Positions 20,224-31,275 of a DNA stretch of 31,275 nt are shown here, in pieces. The position numbers and the translations under genes are program-made. The notes under the pieces were generated by a model, which saw only the letters and a list, made by a program, of their open reading frames with translations, was not told where the DNA came from and made no database searches. Position 1 is the first letter of the stretch; the number at the start of each line of letters is the position of its first letter. This DNA comes from a virus, in IMG/VR virus record IMGVR_UViG_3300030060_002742, positions 1 to 31,275 of that record. One strand, written 5' to 3'.

Positions 20224-20993
20224 TATTTTTCTCCATAAATTCGTTTGACTAAGTTTGAAACATTCGACGGACCCCACTTGCCACCACGACGGGTCTTGTA
20301 CATGTCAGTGTGATTGTTAAGATAGGATGCCATTTCACGTAAACTGTAGCCTTGTTTGACAAGATCGACGATGACAGGTCGCATCCTTTCAGCAAAAGCA
20401 TCTGCTTCCTCCTGAATAGCTTCATGCCCCTTCTCTCTTGCGTCTTCCATGTTTGAGTGAATGCCTAGCTGGGTGATCTTCTTCCCTGACTTGGTGGTGT
20501 AGTGACCTTTGTTCTCAATGACTTCATTGATGCGTCCCAACGCTGATTTTGTGTTTAAAGATATTTTTTCTCGCATGTCCTGGGCCATGGCGACTTTGAT
20601 GGCAAGAACAAGCTTGTTTTGCTTTGGATCGGCAGACAACATAGGATCGTCACAGACAATCAAGTTTACCTTCCCAGTCTCAACATAGCGCTCAAAGAAT
20701 TGAAGCCCATGCCAAGCAGTCCTGAACAGTCTGGAGATCGAGCTGACAATGACTGTCGCTTTCTTTTTCTTGGCTGCGTCCATTGCTTCCTTCAAAACAG
20801 GTCTTTTGTCAGGATGAACTTTACCACTGATGTTTTCTTCAAACCATTCAACCGTATGATCGCCACCGTTGAGGAAGTCACGAATGTCTTTTTTATCTCT
20901 CTCTGTTTCCTGTTTATTGGTCGATACACGGACATAAGCTATGTAGTTTCCTTTGTGTGGCTGACCAGATGTGCTTTGGTTAGCTGGTGACAT
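20223..20993 (-). CDS. Small serine recombinase (resolvase/invertase catalytic domain plus C-terminal DNA-binding region, 256 aa)
   Basis: YIAYVRVSTNKQ contains the catalytic-Ser motif. Also present are VIVSSISRLFR and a C-terminus ADAFAERMRPVIVDLVKQGYSLREMASYLN...RRGGKWGPSNVSNLVKR, typical of short recombinase-family proteins. GGAGAA RBS lies 6 nt upstream. Confidence 0.85.
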   Translation of the reverse strand: MSPANQSTSGQPHKGNYIAYVRVSTNKQETERDKKDIRDFLNGGDHTVEWFEENISGKVHPDKRPVLKEAMDAAKKKKATVIVSSISRLFRTAWHGLQFFERYVETGKVNLIVCDDPMLSADPKQNKLVLAIKVAMAQDMREKISLNTKSALGRINEVIENKGHYTTKSGKKITQLGIHSNMEDAREKGHEAIQEEADAFAERMRPVIVDLVKQGYSLREMASYLNNHTDMYKTRRGGKWGPSNVSNLVKRIYGEK

Positions 20994-21038
20994 TAAATGT
21001 TCTCCTTTGTATCTATAACAGTTCGTTTAATGTTCGTC

Positions 21039-21068
21039 TTTACTGTACATATACCAGGATGGTACATT
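21039..21068 (+). promoter_or_regulatory. Candidate rightward promoter (TTTACT-N18-TACATT) for the RHH operon
   Basis: Hexamers at 21039-21044 and 21063-21068, about 45 nt upstream of the RHH ATG. Sigma-70-like by eye only. Confidence 0.35.
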
Positions 21069-21074
21069 GTGCAA
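21046..21074 (-). promoter_or_regulatory. Candidate leftward promoter (TTGCAC-N17-TATGTA) for the recombinase operon
   Basis: On the minus strand the -35 is at 21074-21069 and the -10 at 21051-21046. It interdigitates with the rightward promoter, so each -10 abuts the other promoter's -35. Confidence 0.35.
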
Positions 21075-21111
21075 GACCTAGATGTTACTTTTTTTTGAAC
21101 GAAGGTGAATT

Positions 21112-21261
21112 ATGAAGCAGGTACACATTAGAATAAACGACGAAGTCTATGAAAAACTTAAAGAATTAGCCGAGAAGGATCGTAGATCAATGGCTAGTTT
21201 GGCCGAATACATTTTATCAAAAGGCTTGCACGATTTTAAAAAAGAGCTTGAAAAAGCATGA
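21112..21261 (+). CDS. Ribbon-helix-helix (CopG/Arc/MetJ-type) DNA-binding protein, 49 aa; candidate Cro-like regulator
   Basis: MKQVHIRINDEVYEKLKELAEKDRRSMASLAEYILSKGL is a textbook RHH beta-strand plus two helices. GAAGGTG RBS. Missed by the ORF track because it is under 60 aa. Confidence 0.75.
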   Translation: MKQVHIRINDEVYEKLKELAEKDRRSMASLAEYILSKGLHDFKKELEKA

Positions 21262-21482
21262 CCCCGGAGTTCAGTCAACCAACACTTGCATTTTTGCTTT
21301 TGGAGTTCACTTCCCTTGCCGATTGTCAGGTTGTCGTAAAGCATCTGGTTGGTTTCATCCATCACAATTTGTTCGTGAATTGTCACAATCACGATGACAG
21401 CTATGCATTTTGGTTTGAACACTGGATGCAACACAATCATTTTCGAGAAGTTCCACCTTCAAGACCGAAGGTGCTTGAATGA
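21258..21482 (+). CDS. His/aromatic-rich 74-aa hypothetical protein
   Basis: ATGA overlap with the RHH stop and ATGA overlap with the next gene. Translational coupling and the downstream RBS hairpin argue that it is translated. No homolog recognised. Confidence 0.4.
   Translation: MTPEFSQPTLAFLLLEFTSLADCQVVVKHLVGFIHHNLFVNCHNHDDSYAFWFEHWMQHNHFREVPPSRPKVLE
21454..21473 (+). promoter_or_regulatory. Hairpin CACCTTC-aagacc-GAAGGTG sequestering the RBS of the DUF1064 gene
   Basis: Perfect 7-bp stem. The right arm is the AAGGTG Shine-Dalgarno, 5 nt upstream of the ATG at 21479. Confidence 0.55.
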
Positions 21483-21817
21483 GGTTTAACAAGTTCAATG
21501 CCCACAAAACCGAGGTCGATGGCATTTTATTTGACAGTAAGAAAGAAGCCACAAGATATAGTGAATTAAAGTATTTGGAGAAAGCAGGTCAGATACACAA
21601 CCTGGAGCTTCAACCCAAGTTTGAATGTATAGTGAAGGAGAAGAAGATATGTACCTACAGAGCAGATTTCAGATATTTCGACAAGTTCCAGAGGGGCGTG
21701 TTGGGTCAGGAAGGAACTATGGTAGTCGAGGACGTAAAGGGCTTCAAAACACCAACCTACAGGTTGAAAAAGAAGCTGGTCGAGGCATTGTTCCAGGTGA
21801 AGATAACCGAATTATGA
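21479..21817 (+). CDS. DUF1064-family protein (PD-(D/E)XK nuclease-like, 112 aa)
   Basis: NKFNAHKTEVDGILFDSKKEATRYSEL..LEKAGQI..LELQPKF......YRADF.Y......VEDVKGFKTPTYRLKKKL matches the DUF1064 pattern known from phage replication modules. Confidence 0.8.
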   Translation: MRFNKFNAHKTEVDGILFDSKKEATRYSELKYLEKAGQIHNLELQPKFECIVKEKKICTYRADFRYFDKFQRGVLGQEGTMVVEDVKGFKTPTYRLKKKLVEALFQVKITEL

Positions 21818-22110
21818 TTACAACAATTGACTTAGCCTTGGTTTTTCAAGAAATAACAAAAATTTCATTTACGGTTATGTATGAGGATTGTCGAAAGGAC
21901 AACGAGTTCATTCACCTGCGTTTCATGTGGACAGGCGTTTGTCGTTTCTTCAAGCGATCCTATCCTCAAATCGCTAAAACAATTAGAAAGGATCATTCGA
22001 CTTGCGTGTTTTATTACAAGCGTCATCTAATGATGATGGACAAATACGACTGGTACTCAGAAAGCTACCTTCTTTTGTTGGATGACACACTGGATCGTTT
22101 TGGGGTTTAA
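21814..22110 (+). CDS. DnaA domain-IV-like helix-turn-helix protein (98 aa, stand-alone)
   Basis: ATGA overlap with the DUF1064 stop. EFIHLRFMWTGVCRFFKRSYPQIAKTIRKDHSTCVFYYKRHLMMMD parallels E. coli DnaA ...[44 protein letters not shown] (recalled sequence), including the DH[ST]T motif. Confidence 0.65.
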   Translation: MITTIDLALVFQEITKISFTVMYEDCRKDNEFIHLRFMWTGVCRFFKRSYPQIAKTIRKDHSTCVFYYKRHLMMMDKYDWYSESYLLLLDDTLDRFGV

Positions 22111-23088
22111 ATGTTGGATATGCCACCAAATAAAACCTCCAAGCAAGTCTTAAGGGAAATAAACAAGGCTCGACAAGACATCCTTCGGCCACCCAAAGAA
22201 CACAACACCTGTGAAACCGGCAAGGAACAGGATCAAGCATTCTCCGCATTCTTCAAAGCACCGAGCAGAGCCTTACAGGACAAACGACTTGCAACAAGAC
22301 CAAGGACTTTTATTATTCTCTGTGCCTTATGTCAGTTTATTGGACCAACAGGATACTGTTATCCCAAGCAAGCACGGATCGCACGACAGCTAGGCATGAC
22401 ACAACAAGGGGTGAGTAAACATATTAGATTGCTGGTTGATTATGGGTATGTCGATAAGGTTCGGAATGAGTATAAGTTTCGTAAAAACGGACATACATCA
22501 GCCACCTGGCGCATACTTTTTGATCCATCAATTGACCAAGAACAAGGGTACAAAAACACCCTCGAACACGATGAACGATTTCAAGAGCAAGAAGCCGAGG
22601 AAACCATGAAAAAAGTAAATGAAAACAATAAGAAGAGTAAGTTATCCACAGAGTTATCCACAGGTAGGCAAAAACAGGCAAAAAAGAAGGAAAAAGAGGG
22701 TACAAAAACAACCCAATTAGGTTGTATGACCCCACAACCCAATGAGGTTGTACAAAAACTGACCAATAGAACTAATATATTTAATATTATAGGAAAAGAT
22801 ATTTGTAAGCTTTATGCTCATTTGTTGGACGACATCGTTGGAGGTCGAGGTGAGTGGCGGTGGGACGAGAGGCAAGAGCAAATAGCTCAAGGGTTCTTAG
22901 ACAAGGGAATGACAGTCGATAGCTTCAAGGCATCAGCAAAGAGAACTCTGTACAGTTGCAAGAAGGAGAGCAGACGACCACCCTACTCGCTTGCATTCTT
23001 TGAACAGGCCATGCCACAAACAAAGAAACCCACCTTGTCAGCTAGTGATGTCATCAAAAGAGTAACCAACAAGAGTAAAATAAAATGA
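22111..23088 (+). CDS. Replication initiator-like protein with N-terminal winged-helix domain (325 aa)
   Basis: ILCALCQFIGPTGYCYPKQARIARQLGMTQQGVSKHIRLLVDYGYVDKV is the HTH pattern of phage O/replication-initiator proteins. A charged low-complexity linker carries the DnaA boxes. It sits in the replication module. Confidence 0.6.
   Translation: MLDMPPNKTSKQVLREINKARQDILRPPKEHNTCETGKEQDQAFSAFFKAPSRALQDKRLATRPRTFIILCALCQFIGPTGYCYPKQARIARQLGMTQQGVSKHIRLLVDYGYVDKVRNEYKFRKNGHTSATWRILFDPSIDQEQGYKNTLEHDERFQEQEAEETMKKVNENNKKSKLSTELSTGRQKQAKKKEKEGTKTTQLGCMTPQPNEVVQKLTNRTNIFNIIGKDICKLYAHLLDDIVGGRGEWRWDERQEQIAQGFLDKGMTVDSFKASAKRTLYSCKKESRRPPYSLAFFEQAMPQTKKPTLSASDVIKRVTNKSKIK
22640..22663 (+). promoter_or_regulatory. 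Two perfect consensus DnaA boxes (TTATCCACA at 22642-22650 and 22654-22662) within a 12-bp tandem duplication AGTTATCCACAG x2
   Basis: Read directly: gtaAGTTATCCACAGAGTTATCCACAGgt. It encodes the duplicated LST-E-LST in the initiator linker. Confidence 0.7.
22664..22710 (+). repeat. Phased A-tracts (AGGCAAAAAC AGGCAAAAAA GAAGGAAAAA GAGGGTACAAAAAC)
   Basis: A5-6 runs begin at 22670, 22680, 22691 and 22704, roughly one helical turn apart and immediately 3' of the DnaA boxes. This suggests intrinsic bending or an unwinding-prone region. Confidence 0.5.
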
Positions 23089-23105
23089 CTGTTCATAACT
23101 TAGAG

Positions 23106-23126
23106 GTTCGTTTACATTGTGTACAT
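23106..23126 (+). promoter_or_regulatory. Composite motif GTTCGTTTACATTGTGTACAT shared with the switch region
   Basis: It contains GTTCGTTTA (also at 21021-21029), TACATTGTG (also at 21063-21071) and TGTACAT (also at 21044-21050). It lies just after the initiator stop, before the first good ATG (23151) of the next ORF. Confidence 0.45.
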
Positions 23127-23150
23127 CTGCTAAATTACGTACAAAAAATA

Positions 23151-23369
23151 ATGCAATCTTTTTACACGATGTCCACGACCCCACCAAGAAAAAACGACCT
23201 TACGCCCCCCCCCGTTGCTAAGTATAGTAGGGGTATCCCACAAAACTTTTTCCAAGATTTCGTCTGTTGCCTTTGCGGTAAGGACGCTACTTTATCTCAT
23301 GGTCAGACTGATAGTTTGTATTGCGTAGAACATCATCCTGATTGGCAGAAAATCAAAGAAAGGAAGTAA
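23151..23369 (+). CDS. Small Cys/His protein (72 aa from the ATG at 23151), possible zinc ribbon
   Basis: CCLCGKDATLSHGQTDSLYCVEHH fits a CxC...CxxHH pattern. The start was moved downstream of the shared operator-like motif. It contains a C9 homopolymer (23205-23213). Confidence 0.45.
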   Translation: MQSFYTMSTTPPRKNDLTPPPVAKYSRGIPQNFFQDFVCCLCGKDATLSHGQTDSLYCVEHHPDWQKIKERK

Positions 23370-23370
23370 C

Positions 23371-23652
23371 ATGGATAAATACAAGAGATTTAAATTTCTT
23401 ACTTGTGAGCAACTAATAAAGTTCTACGAAAATGATGACAGTATAAATCAGGAAATAGATATGTCTTTAGACCCACCTTACTCATTTATGCTTCCAGAAC
23501 ATCTTAGTGAATTGTGGAAAAAAGAAGGTCTTAAACCATCAAAATTTACTTTAGATTTATGGAAAACTGACGCTGAAAGAATAAACGATTTAAGAAAAAT
23601 AAGAAAAAGAGATGGAATTACAAAGTACATACCAAAATGTTGTTTTAATTAA
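23371..23652 (+). CDS. Hypothetical protein (93 aa)
   Basis: The ATG is 1 nt after the previous stop, preceded by AAGGAAG. AT-rich ORFan. Confidence 0.5.
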   Translation: MDKYKRFKFLTCEQLIKFYENDDSINQEIDMSLDPPYSFMLPEHLSELWKKEGLKPSKFTLDLWKTDAERINDLRKIRKRDGITKYIPKCCFN

Positions 23653-23706
23653 AAACGCTGTAAACGATGTAAACGCAACTATCAAACGTATCAAACGTAT
23701 CAAATA
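23653..23706. repeat. 9-bp-phased AAACG array: TGTAAACG x2 (+AAACG) then TATCAAACG x2 + TATCAAATA
   Basis: AAACG motifs start at 23653, 23662, 23671, 23684 and 23693, with a decayed copy at 23702. The array lies in a 177-bp non-coding gap. Confidence 0.8.
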
Positions 23707-23756
23707 AAGGTATTTTTTAACAAATGTCGCATAAAAAACAACAAAAAGGAGCTAAA

Positions 23757-23840
23757 ATGCAAGAAATCGTAGATACGGACAAAGAACGCAAGGAATTTGA
23801 AGGACTGAAAAAAATGATGGAGAAAATGAATGGAAGATAA
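23757..23840 (+). CDS. 27-aa mini-ORF MQEIVDTDKERKEFEGLKKMMEKMNGR
   Basis: Near-ideal AAGGAG RBS with a 5-nt spacer. It overlaps the next ORF start by 11 nt. Very short, so uncertain. Confidence 0.3.
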   Translation: MQEIVDTDKERKEFEGLKKMMEKMNGR

Positions 23841-24288
23841 AGATTTTGAATATTATGAACAATATGATGCTGATTGTAATCCTATACATTTAATCTGGAA
23901 TTGTCGAATTACTGACAGAGAAAGACTAAAACATCCTTTTGTTGGAATGTGCGGATGGAAGTTTAAGGATACAGATGATCTTACAAAAAAGGTACATCCA
24001 CATCAGCATTTCATCATTCATGCAGTTGCTAATGATATGGTTATTATTCGTTTGTTTAGCTGGTTGGATGGTACTCCTACACACATGGAAGCATATCCAC
24101 TAGAGGACATAAAGAAATGGCATCTTTTTACTAATAACAAGGACATGAACGAAAGTTATTACCATGACTTTCCTACAGGATCTATGACTGGTCTAGACAA
24201 AAATAAGAAAAAACAAACTAAAAAAACTAACTACACTTTGGCAGAAATATCCAAGATGTTTGAAAAAAAAATAGATGCAAAACTTTAA
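23830..24288 (+). CDS. Hypothetical protein (152 aa)
   Basis: GGAG lies 7 nt upstream. AT-rich ORFan with no motif recognised. Confidence 0.55.
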   Translation: MEDKDFEYYEQYDADCNPIHLIWNCRITDRERLKHPFVGMCGWKFKDTDDLTKKVHPHQHFIIHAVANDMVIIRLFSWLDGTPTHMEAYPLEDIKKWHLFTNNKDMNESYYHDFPTGSMTGLDKNKKKQTKKTNYTLAEISKMFEKKIDAKL

Positions 24289-24499
24289 ACAAATAATTTT
24301 TAGCAAAGAAGAATATGAGATGCTCTGTGAAATAATTGCAGTAAATTACAAGCATCCTCAGTACATTGATGGCAGCATTGTTTGCAATGGAGATCAATTA
24401 GAAACATGGAAGAATATAAACAAGAAAATTAGGGGTGAAGAATTTGCACCCCCCCTGGTAAAGATAGCAACAATAAATGGAGAAAAAGTAAATGGCTAG
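24275..24499 (+). CDS. Hypothetical protein (74 aa)
   Basis: Overlaps both neighbouring genes, by 14 nt and 8 nt. Contains a C7 tract at 24449-24455. Confidence 0.45.
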   Translation: MQNFKQIIFSKEEYEMLCEIIAVNYKHPQYIDGSIVCNGDQLETWKNINKKIRGEEFAPPLVKIATINGEKVNG

Positions 24500-24905
24500 T
24501 TTAAACAAAGTAACCTTGATCGGTAATGTAGGACGAGATGTAGAGATTAAGGTTTTTGACAATGGGGGTAAGATTGCCAAGTTTCCATTAGCGACGACGG
24601 AAAGTTACAAGAACAAATCGGGAGAGAAAGTAGAGAACACCACTTGGCATAACATTGTTATTCGTTCTGAGGGATTGTGTAGAATTGCTGAGATGTATGT
24701 TGGGAAAGGTTCTCAGATTTGTGTTGAAGGAAAGATTTCTGTGAGAGAATATTCAACTAAAGATGGCAACAAGGCAAAGCAGACGGAAATTGTTGTTGAT
24801 AGCTTTGGGGGTCAACTTATTCTTCTTTCTAGGAAAGATCCTAAACCTCAACAGTCTTTACAGAACTTAGGAAATTTTGATCAACAAATAACTACGGGGG
24901 TTTAA
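24492..24905 (+). CDS. ssb: Single-stranded DNA-binding protein (137 aa)
   Basis: LNKVTLIGNVGRDVEIK......AKFPLATTESYK.KSGEKVE.TTWHNIV......AEMYVGKGSQICVEGKI..REY is the canonical OB-fold SSB pattern. Confidence 0.9.
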   Translation: MASLNKVTLIGNVGRDVEIKVFDNGGKIAKFPLATTESYKNKSGEKVENTTWHNIVIRSEGLCRIAEMYVGKGSQICVEGKISVREYSTKDGNKAKQTEIVVDSFGGQLILLSRKDPKPQQSLQNLGNFDQQITTGV

Positions 24906-25303
24906 TGAAACGGGTTGGAGGTATAAAGGGCATTCGTCAGATTACCCGAAGGATTAAGGGTTCTAATGTTATTATGAATAACCGGGATCGGTTAGCTCAA
25001 GAACTTGTTGCTTTGGGAACTTCTGACATTACGGACATTATGACTTGGGATGATGAGGGAAATGTGGAGATAAAAGCCTCTAAGGACATAAAGCCTGAAG
25101 CATTGAGGTCTATTCGTAAGATAAGGGTATTGCCTGGTCAGGGCATTGAGGTTGAGTTGATTGACAAGGTTAGGGTGTTGCAGACACTTGCGAAAAGCGC
25201 AGGGTTATTGGAAAGCGAGAAACATGCGGATAGGCCAGCCGTGGTAGAGGTTCAGATGTTAGGCCCCGGTGATAATACTTTTAAGGAAAAGAAAAATGAC
25301 TAA
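24905..25303 (+). CDS. Terminase small subunit-like protein (132 aa)
   Basis: TAATG-coupled to ssb and directly upstream of the large terminase. The C-terminal ...IRKIRVLPGQGIEVELIDKVRVLQTLAKSAGLLE resembles the C-terminal half of Terminase_2-type small subunits. Confidence 0.55.
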   Translation: MKRVGGIKGIRQITRRIKGSNVIMNNRDRLAQELVALGTSDITDIMTWDDEGNVEIKASKDIKPEALRSIRKIRVLPGQGIEVELIDKVRVLQTLAKSAGLLESEKHADRPAVVEVQMLGPGDNTFKEKKND

Positions 25304-25460
25304 GAAATCAATTGTGGATCAATTTAGACTAAAACCGATTGCCCTAGAAAACAGAGCTAAAACTATGGGAAAAAGAAAGTATAGTTTAAATAAAATCAAG
25401 AAAGATTGTTTACGTTTTGAAAGATCGGTAGGTGTAAGAAATGACCCCCTTAAAACTTGA
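25296..25460 (+). CDS. Possible 54-aa basic ORF between the terminase genes
   Basis: The ATG overlaps the TerS stop region, and the ORF overlaps the TerL start by 20 nt. No motif recognised. It may be spurious. Confidence 0.25.
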   Translation: MTKKSIVDQFRLKPIALENRAKTMGKRKYSLNKIKKDCLRFERSVGVRNDPLKT

Positions 25461-31176: not shown

Positions 31177-31275
31177 ATCGGTTACTCCTTAGTGTAAAAG
31201 GTTCGACTTTCATTAAATCTACTATTAAATGTAACTAATAATATTTAACGAGACAACGATAACATAACGATAACA
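31177..31275. repeat. Terminal overlap copy 2 (identical to 1-99)
   Basis: Same as above. A length of exactly 99 nt looks like an assembler k-mer overlap, but a true direct terminal repeat cannot be excluded. Confidence 0.95.

Follow-up and report, generated by a model that had tools for sequence, protein, structure and literature searches.

A candidate replication origin within the initiator gene of an uncultured marine podovirus, with lambda-like repeats and plasmid-like DnaA boxes

The replication origin of bacteriophage lambda, ori-lambda, lies inside gene O: inverted-repeat 19-mers bind O dimers, and an AT-rich stretch follows (PMC5043065). The iteron plasmids P1, F, RK2 and pSC101 carry DnaA boxes next to their iterons, and the helicase is first placed at the DnaA boxes and then handed to the opened DNA (PMC4980987). 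The order in RK2 oriV is DnaA boxes, iterons, AT-rich segment and GC-rich segment, the orientation of the boxes being critical; in P1 oriR, a single box is enough and the box position is flexible (PMC4980987). Marine podoviruses of the MEP301-like group are reported to have no polymerase and to need their host in order to replicate (PMC8024684); neither an origin nor an initiator had been described for them. Here we analyze a 31,275-nt stretch of viral DNA (hereafter the window) that covers positions 1 to 31,275 of the IMG/VR virus record IMGVR_UViG_3300030060_002742 and comes from an uncultured marine podovirus, virulent-looking or temperate. Its putative replication initiator gene (22111–23088, plus strand) contains an element at ~22615–22810 that, judging from its sequence, we propose with a probability of about 0.6 to be the replication origin of the phage, a DnaA-assisted hybrid of the lambda and plasmid designs. 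That the element is an origin or an initiator-binding element we consider likely.

The predicted initiator is a 325-amino-acid protein with an N-terminal winged helix (residues ~60–140), a predicted disordered linker (~174–224) and a C-terminal helical domain (~225–300). Pfam assigns its open reading frame (ORF) to HTH_36 (E 5e-11), with other matches to MarR_2, HTH_24 and HTH_20 and none to a Rep family, and residues 45–200 match the 'replication initiation protein' and 'replication initiation O-like' families of PHROGs (E 4e-10 to 1e-4; the O-like matches by themselves, 4e-8 to 6e-5). In an AlphaFold2 model built from 14 sequences and poor overall, with a mean predicted local distance difference test (pLDDT) score of 59, pLDDT is below 50 at residues 174–224 and 81–89 at residues 225–300. 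The candidate origin, which we delimit by a segment of suppressed synonymous change (~22615–22777) and the adjoining AT-rich stretch, falls in the predicted disordered linker. As in ori-lambda, it is located in the initiator's own coding sequence, between the N-terminal DNA-binding and the C-terminal domains, and the winged helix of the window initiator matches 'O-like' PHROG families. An earlier reading of the window, made without database searches (the sequence-only reading), had likewise compared it with lambda as an origin inside an initiator gene, and the analogy fits. Beyond the winged helix there is no detectable sequence similarity to O.

Relatives of the initiator were drawn from IMG/VR viral contigs, from a 5.8-billion-protein collection (for which the encoding contigs were fetched) and from JGI/ENA metagenomes. 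We recovered 58 distinct related loci, apparently all metagenomic and largely marine. The non-redundant set comprises 35 initiators (clusters at 97% identity), and six clusters at 60% identity are treated as lineages. Codon alignments were made for seven genes of clade A and five of clade B, the score being the fraction of identical amino acids that are encoded by different codons; clade B initiators share only 37–39% protein identity with the window clade.

At the center of the element are two 19-nt palindromes, which we refer to as iterons: ACAACCCAATTAGGTTGTA at 22708–22726, with arms ACAACC/GGTTGT, and ACAACCCAATGAGGTTGTA at 22734–22752, 26 nt after the first. Because this spacing is not a multiple of three, the same DNA is read in two reading frames, as TTQLGC in iteron 1 and as QPNEVV in iteron 2. 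The pattern ACAAC-N7-GGTTGT has no other mismatch-free occurrence in the genome. Both iterons are invariant in all seven aligned clade A genes and the stretch between them is scrambled, which is the pattern expected of two protein-binding sites. Clade B has ACAACTTCCAGAGGTTGTA and ACAACCCCCAGAGGTTGTA at the same position in the gene and with the same 26-nt spacing. Every lineage carries two to four such palindromes at this position, and their arms are uniform within a genome and differ by lineage: CACAAG/CTTGTG in L017, TACTAC/GTAGTA in L015 and L032, and GTCAAC/GTTGAC in L016 and ~20 others. Arms matched to the lineage would be expected for the sites of a co-evolving dimeric protein, and the palindromic form of the repeats implies dimer binding. 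Comparison by eye of the recognition helix with the repeat arms gave no simple code, SRQMR occurring with both GTCAAC and TACTAC arms. The palindromes had been overlooked in the sequence-only reading, which took the repeated element to be the DnaA box rather than a phage-specific iteron; the family comparison reverses this, since the palindromes at 22708–22752 are universal and the boxes are not.

Synonymous change is suppressed in the element. In clade A the synonymous-difference fraction drops from a gene mean of 0.31 to 0.00–0.07 at codons ~169–222 (22615–22777), and in clade B from 0.43 to 0.00–0.25, from the box codons through the repeats into the AT-rich stretch. In two clades, then, the linker is conserved at the nucleotide level beyond the needs of the protein. 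The AT-rich stretch (22765–22810), a putative DNA-unwinding element, is the most AT-rich part of the initiator gene: with 85% AT, 22770–22809 ranks at the 99.8th percentile among the genome's 40-mers. Such a stretch follows the repeats in every clade inspected, just as an AT-rich stretch follows the 19-nt dyad repeats in the lambda initiator ORF. In the window it is succeeded by a GC-rich block at 22820–22870 (33–45% AT, bottom 1% of 40-mers) that encodes the conserved RGEWRWDERQ. In all sequences inspected the order is box or boxes, repeats, AT-rich stretch. No Rfam match was found in 20900–25400, and a promoter scan gave no enrichment of promoter-like sites at the element. Terminator-like matches are slightly above those in shuffled sequences (6 versus a mean of 3.0, sd 1.7), those in the element being the palindromes themselves. 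A further repeat, AGGGTACAAAAACA(C/A)CC, occurs at 22545–22561 and 22697–22713 (152 nt apart), and together with GTACAAAAAC at 22750–22759 it flanks the boxes and the iterons. We do not count it as part of the element; its first site is not kept in L001, and the repeat may be coincidental.

The second component of the element is a pair of DnaA boxes. The 12-mer AGTTATCCACAG at 22640–22651 is followed by an exact second copy at 22652–22663 (sequence context ...AGTAAGTTATCCACAGAGTTATCCACAGGTAGGCAAAAACAGGCAAAAAAGAAGGAAAAAGAGGGTACAAAAACAACCC...), so that two perfect TTATCCACA 9-mers stand head-to-tail on the plus strand at 22642–22650 and 22654–22662, 12 nt apart, 45 nt upstream of iteron 1. The tandem boxes are read as LSTELST within the initiator ORF; TTGAGTACC is an example of a synonymous change to the box sequence. 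These are the only perfect DnaA boxes in the whole 31,176-bp circle. Given the local base composition, ~0.001 perfect boxes are expected in the 161 nt around the repeats, and the pair is therefore far beyond chance; one-mismatch boxes are not enriched in the window (15 observed versus 9.9 expected). The 9-mer is identical to E. coli oriC R1 and R4, and so are the flanks (R4, cagAGTTATCCACA; R1, GTTATCCACAGGG on the box strand), which places the window boxes in the R-type, high-affinity class. In contrast to E. coli oriC, no array of low-affinity DnaA sites is evident in the window. Between boxes and repeats lies a spacer (22666–22708, plus strand) with four A-tracts starting at 22670 (A5), 22680 (A6), 22691 (A5) and 22704 (A5), at spacings of 10, 11 and 13 nt, and including AGGCAAAAAC twice; from its sequence, the spacer is a possible intrinsic bend. 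Both the tandem boxes in the initiator linker and the phased A-tracts had been described correctly in the sequence-only reading.

Perfect boxes cluster tightly at the same place in the relatives. In 15 loci (106 kb) for which box position relative to the first repeat was measured, all 16 perfect boxes fall within −66 to +49 nt of the first repeat and none elsewhere, the expectation being 1.2 overall and ~0.001–0.002 per zone. A further 44 loci (~162 kb), scored for ORF location, hold 27 boxes in 21 loci, every one inside the initiator ORF, which brings the total to 43 of 43 perfect boxes over ~268 kb of DNA from the family. Of the 35 non-redundant initiators, 20 have one or more perfect boxes, and all six lineages have box-bearing members, the states seen across clusters being two plus-strand boxes, one plus, one minus, one of each, and none. 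The window clade mostly keeps the tandem duplication (L001, L018, L011, L019–L023 and L026, that is, at least nine relatives with 74–81% protein identity); L010 has a single box, and L002, L012, L024 and L025 have none. Clade B has one minus-strand box that starts 31 nt before the first palindrome, the L028 group one plus-strand box abutting it, and L017 a plus- and a minus-strand box on either side of it. TTATCCACC and a perfect box, 20 nt apart, are found in L032, and two one-mismatch boxes in its close relative L015. The clade with GTCAAC arms has a minus-strand box in some members and none in most, and the very distant L062 has one minus-strand box. In every sequence inspected, the boxes and the AT-rich stretch are on opposite sides of the repeat array.

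Plus-strand boxes encode LST and minus-strand boxes xVDN, where x is H, R or P; the third position of the x codon is fixed as the T that the box needs although the residue varies. An extended context, AGTTATCCACA(G), is common to boxes of either orientation and is identical to the bases flanking E. coli oriC R4 and R1. Because the boxes are found in all six lineages, in both orientations and with different peptides, they are kept by selection as DNA and not for the encoded peptide. The sequence-only reading had held that homologs keeping the peptide repeat and lacking the boxes would speak against an origin; the box-less relatives are without the peptide as well. In the window clade, boxes and A-tract spacer form one module of 72–81 nt that is present or absent as a unit (a single indel): it is deleted in L002 and L012, and the spacer is absent from the other clades. 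The phasing of the A-tracts is kept in L001 (10, 10 and 13 nt) despite amino-acid differences. As parts of the origin the A-tracts are not supported by the comparison: outside the box-bearing members of one clade they are not kept, and they are lost with the boxes. By this distribution the DnaA boxes are an accessory module, gained and lost, beside an indispensable core of palindromic repeats and AT-rich stretch.

The gene content of the phage bears on how such an origin could work. The window is a 31,176-bp circle plus a 99-nt terminal overlap, which bears out the circle size assumed before. The ORFs screened with Pfam and PHROGs yield RecT, a small serine recombinase, an Arc-like repressor, a DUF1064 resolvase, the initiator, a single-strand DNA-binding protein (SSB; 24492–24905, plus strand, Pfam SSB E 1.7e-27), terminase and T7-like head genes. 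Replication genes are few, the initiator and SSB: the screened ORFs gave no match to a helicase, loader, primase or polymerase, so the origin would have to recruit the host helicase. Host-dependent replication is likewise described for the phage MEP301, the nearest relative in culture (PMC8024684).

We suggest the following sequence of events. Dimers of the winged-helix initiator would bind the two 19-nt palindromic repeats (22708–22726 and 22734–22752), and host DnaA would bind the two R1/R4-type boxes 45 nt upstream (22642–22662); the phased A-tract spacer may bend the DNA and bring DnaA to the initiator complex. DnaA and initiator together would open the 85% AT stretch (22765–22810), bordered by the GC-rich block, and DnaA, probably with the C-terminal domain of the initiator, would bring in the host helicase, as at the P1, F, RK2 and pSC101 origins; the host enzyme is invoked because the screened ORFs yielded neither a phage helicase nor a loader, primase or polymerase. 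The features, their position, their conservation and their covariation with initiator lineage are what we observe, and from them we infer the binding events, the strand opening and the origin function. That host DnaA is the ligand of the boxes and helps helicase loading is, in our estimate, an even bet, and dependence on it would be at most conditional, since many relatives are without boxes.

This arrangement is best described as a hybrid, an intragenic origin of the lambda type to which a DnaA module of the plasmid type is optionally added, a classification we hold with the same confidence as the origin itself. The element differs from ori-lambda in having two repeats (two to four in relatives) instead of four and in the high-affinity-type DnaA boxes that flank the repeats, and no P-like or DnaC-like loader, helicase or primase match was found in the ORFs neighboring the initiator (Pfam, PHROGs). 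To our knowledge, ori-lambda is without DnaA boxes and lambda initiates without DnaA at the origin. With P1 oriR, F oriS, RK2 oriV and pSC101 the element shares the succession of boxes (22642–22662), repeats (22708–22752) and AT-rich stretch (22765–22810); these plasmids depend on host helicase, primase and polymerase, and we propose the same for the window phage. Plasmid iterons, however, are direct repeats bound by monomers of a RepA-, RepE- or TrfA-type Rep protein and lie outside the rep gene, whereas the window repeats are palindromes inside the gene of an HTH_36/O-like initiator that is not of the Rep_3/RepE type. The boxes, moreover, are dispensable in many members of the phage family, and the replicon is a podovirus, not a plasmid. 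Having neither a P-like loader nor a Rep_3/RepE-type initiator, the element is a full member of neither class. The lambda design, with its intragenic origin, and the plasmid design, with DnaA boxes beside iterons, would thus be combinable in one element. Since box number in the family ranges naturally from none to two, and orientation also varies, the relatives form a series for asking what DnaA does at a non-chromosomal origin.

Several points weigh against the proposal. Binding, opening and the start of replication are deduced from sequence. The label 'initiator' is drawn from similarity of the N-terminal winged helix; the structural model is weak and brings up no structural relative, a Foldseek search of the PDB returning nothing below E = 2 and a profile search of PDB sequences returning generic ArsR/MarR winged helices only. 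Two repeats are few next to four in lambda and five in P1. A perfect box is missing from 15 of the 35 non-redundant relatives, and DnaA is therefore not essential for the family; number, orientation and distance of the boxes to the repeats vary, unlike in RK2, where orientation is critical. No prophage copy and no member of the initiator family was found among 185,579 reference (GTDB) genomes, hence there is no host assignment, and the box preference of the host's own DnaA may differ from the E. coli R1/R4 type. The screen for replication genes covered only a minority of the ORFs of the structural region. Finally, GC skew gives no support: the cumulative plot, which the sequence-only reading had looked to for the origin, tracks gene orientation and has only a shallow local minimum at ~19–21 kb, where transcription diverges.

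Among the alternatives, the one that survives best, though we think it unlikely, gives the boxes to a phage protein. Directly upstream of the initiator gene, at 21814–22110 (plus strand), lies a gene for a 98-amino-acid stand-alone homologue of DnaA domain IV. The listed ORF, 21625–22110, overlaps the DUF1064 gene in another frame and yields a spuriously 'conserved' N-terminus in ORF-based alignments; the real start is most likely 21814, as backed by a 98-amino-acid TARA gene call. A profile of eight family members has as its best PDB match 1J1V, E. coli DnaA domain IV in complex with a DnaA box (E 3.4e-10, residues 1–88 of 94, the domain being covered nearly full length), and also matches M. 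tuberculosis, B. subtilis-type, Thermotoga and Aquifex DnaA chains. In the 1J1V alignment the family's invariant Arg corresponds to R399, its Pro to P423 and its D-H-S/T motif to D433-H434-T435, with D433 kept except in clade B; in 1J1V these five residues are reported to contact DNA. The family forms 42 unnamed clusters, all from marine metagenomes, with a single match among GenBank phages, annotated as hypothetical. Most relatives carry precomputed matches to Pfam PF08299 (Bac_DnaA_C), whereas the window protein stays below the cut-off (18.4 versus 31.5 bits).

On this alternative the domain IV protein, and not host DnaA, would bind the boxes and either mark or license the phage origin or exclude host DnaA from it. 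The place of the gene, directly upstream of the initiator in most relatives, speaks for it, as do the near-complete match to DNA-bound 1J1V, the retention of R399, P423, H434 and T435, and boxes of the type that domain IV binds best. The sequence-only reading had offered recruitment of this protein as one outcome, for which the family gives no co-occurrence support: in an hmmsearch over all loci, most relatives have the gene ahead of their initiator, boxes or not, with at least 15 loci having the gene without a perfect box, and L017 and L030 have boxes and no domain IV gene within at least 1.7 kb upstream. The window copy's score below the Pfam cut-off also counts against it. DnaA domains I and III oligomerize, open DNA and contact the helicase. 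The 98-amino-acid protein consists of domain IV alone, without the AAA+ domain III and domain I (or II), that is, without the oligomerizing, opening and helicase-contacting parts, and it could therefore only compete or tether.

The protein may instead act on host boxes. One could imagine a two-layer takeover in which it occupies R-type boxes at host oriC or the dnaA promoter and, where boxes are present, at the phage origin; host initiation would then be shut down, the protein would switch access of host DnaA to the phage origin, and the box module would be repeatedly gained and lost as hosts change. We regard this scheme as improbable. If it were true, the domain IV protein would imitate the DNA-binding head of the bacterial initiator and act as a dominant negative encoded by the phage, a mechanism of which we found no description in the literature searched. 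In any case the conserved gene defines an uncharacterized protein family that may interfere with host replication initiation.

Returning to the proposed origin, its components could also be read as regulatory, and rather little credence attaches to that: the initiator would regulate its own expression through the palindromes, and DnaA at the boxes would act as a transcription roadblock or modulator, tying expression to the replication state of the host in the way that DnaA does for transcription from lambda pR. Palindromic sites and DnaA boxes are typical operator elements too, the element lies within a transcribed gene, and the loose geometry of the boxes suits a roadblock better than an origin. 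But an operator in mid-gene would be unusual, the promoter scan gave no enrichment there, and the order of box, iterons and extreme AT-rich stretch, with the GC-rich block next to it in the window, is that of known origins. Besides, the genome must have an origin somewhere, and the surroundings of the replication genes yielded no further conserved cluster of repeats.

It is very unlikely that the true origin is elsewhere and the linker element serves another purpose. Two sites come into question. The first, named in the sequence-only reading, is an intergenic, AT-rich array at 23653–23706 that consists of AAACGATGT repeated 2.6 times and then TATCAAACG repeated 2.8 times; tandem repetition makes it attractive, but none of the 62 loci searched has it, and the accessory ORFs around it are missing from L001 and L018. 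The second is a conserved element of ~80 nt at ~23185–23262, ~400 nt downstream of the candidate origin, with the layout AAAAAACGACCTTACG, a run of 7–9 C, a TATAGT-like hexamer and then GGGGTAYCYCACAAAACTTTTT. Its counterparts are at ~1105–1175 in L001, ~5935–6005 in L003 and ~3450–3525 in L028, and its core, CACAAAACTTTT, is found in 19 loci of three initiator clades. Conservation across three clades and in different coding contexts (within a 94-amino-acid ORF for the window clade, between genes for clade B and the L028 group) is in its favor; yet it is without repeats or an extremely AT-rich segment and bears a closer resemblance to a promoter or terminator region. It could be the promoter or terminator of the next operon, or a small RNA; Rfam gives no match.

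That the element has no function as DNA, the 12-nt duplication being slippage in a low-complexity linker and the conservation a matter of protein needs or mRNA structure, is scarcely credible and largely refuted, for although the linker is charged, predicted disordered and slippage-prone and a small hairpin can form at each palindrome, other clades carry the 9-mer in the opposite orientation and with a different peptide, perfect boxes cluster at this place, the repeats are read in two frames, synonymous sites are frozen, the predicted RNA fold of 22630–22800 is no better than shuffled sequences (z −1.3), and one arm sequence is used per genome, which independent hairpins would not need.

The linker element thus provides a concrete candidate origin for an uncultured branch of the MEP301-like group, and perfect DnaA boxes together with lineage-specific palindromes in an HTH_36 gene give an origin signature usable in annotating viral metagenomes. 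The terminase large subunit (TerL) of the phage is closest to that of the OM43 phage MEP301 (65% protein identity), followed by Pelagibacter phage Hodr (44%), and its capsid genes are T7-like. GenBank phages include no close match at the DNA level, and the initiator's matches there are confined to the winged helix of HTH proteins from Rhodobacter phages. MEP301 itself (L064), the closest relative in culture, is devoid of perfect DnaA boxes and has no homologous initiator, which rules it out as an experimental stand-in; its origin may be built differently from that of the window phage. A weak HTH_36 match is all that its 201-amino-acid gp55 (34057–34662) has to offer, and beside gp55 there are two unannotated gaps at 33148–34056.

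Two smaller observations concern the window outside the candidate origin. The first 12 codons of the initiator gene (22111–22150), which abut the stop codon of the domain IV gene, also have low synonymous change (0.12), which is probably due to constraints from translational coupling or ribosome binding. A tandem of AACGATAACAT in 3.4 copies is found at 79–114 and 31255–31275, upstream of the major capsid gene (254–1108) and in part within the 99-nt terminal overlap; it may have a role in packaging or regulation.

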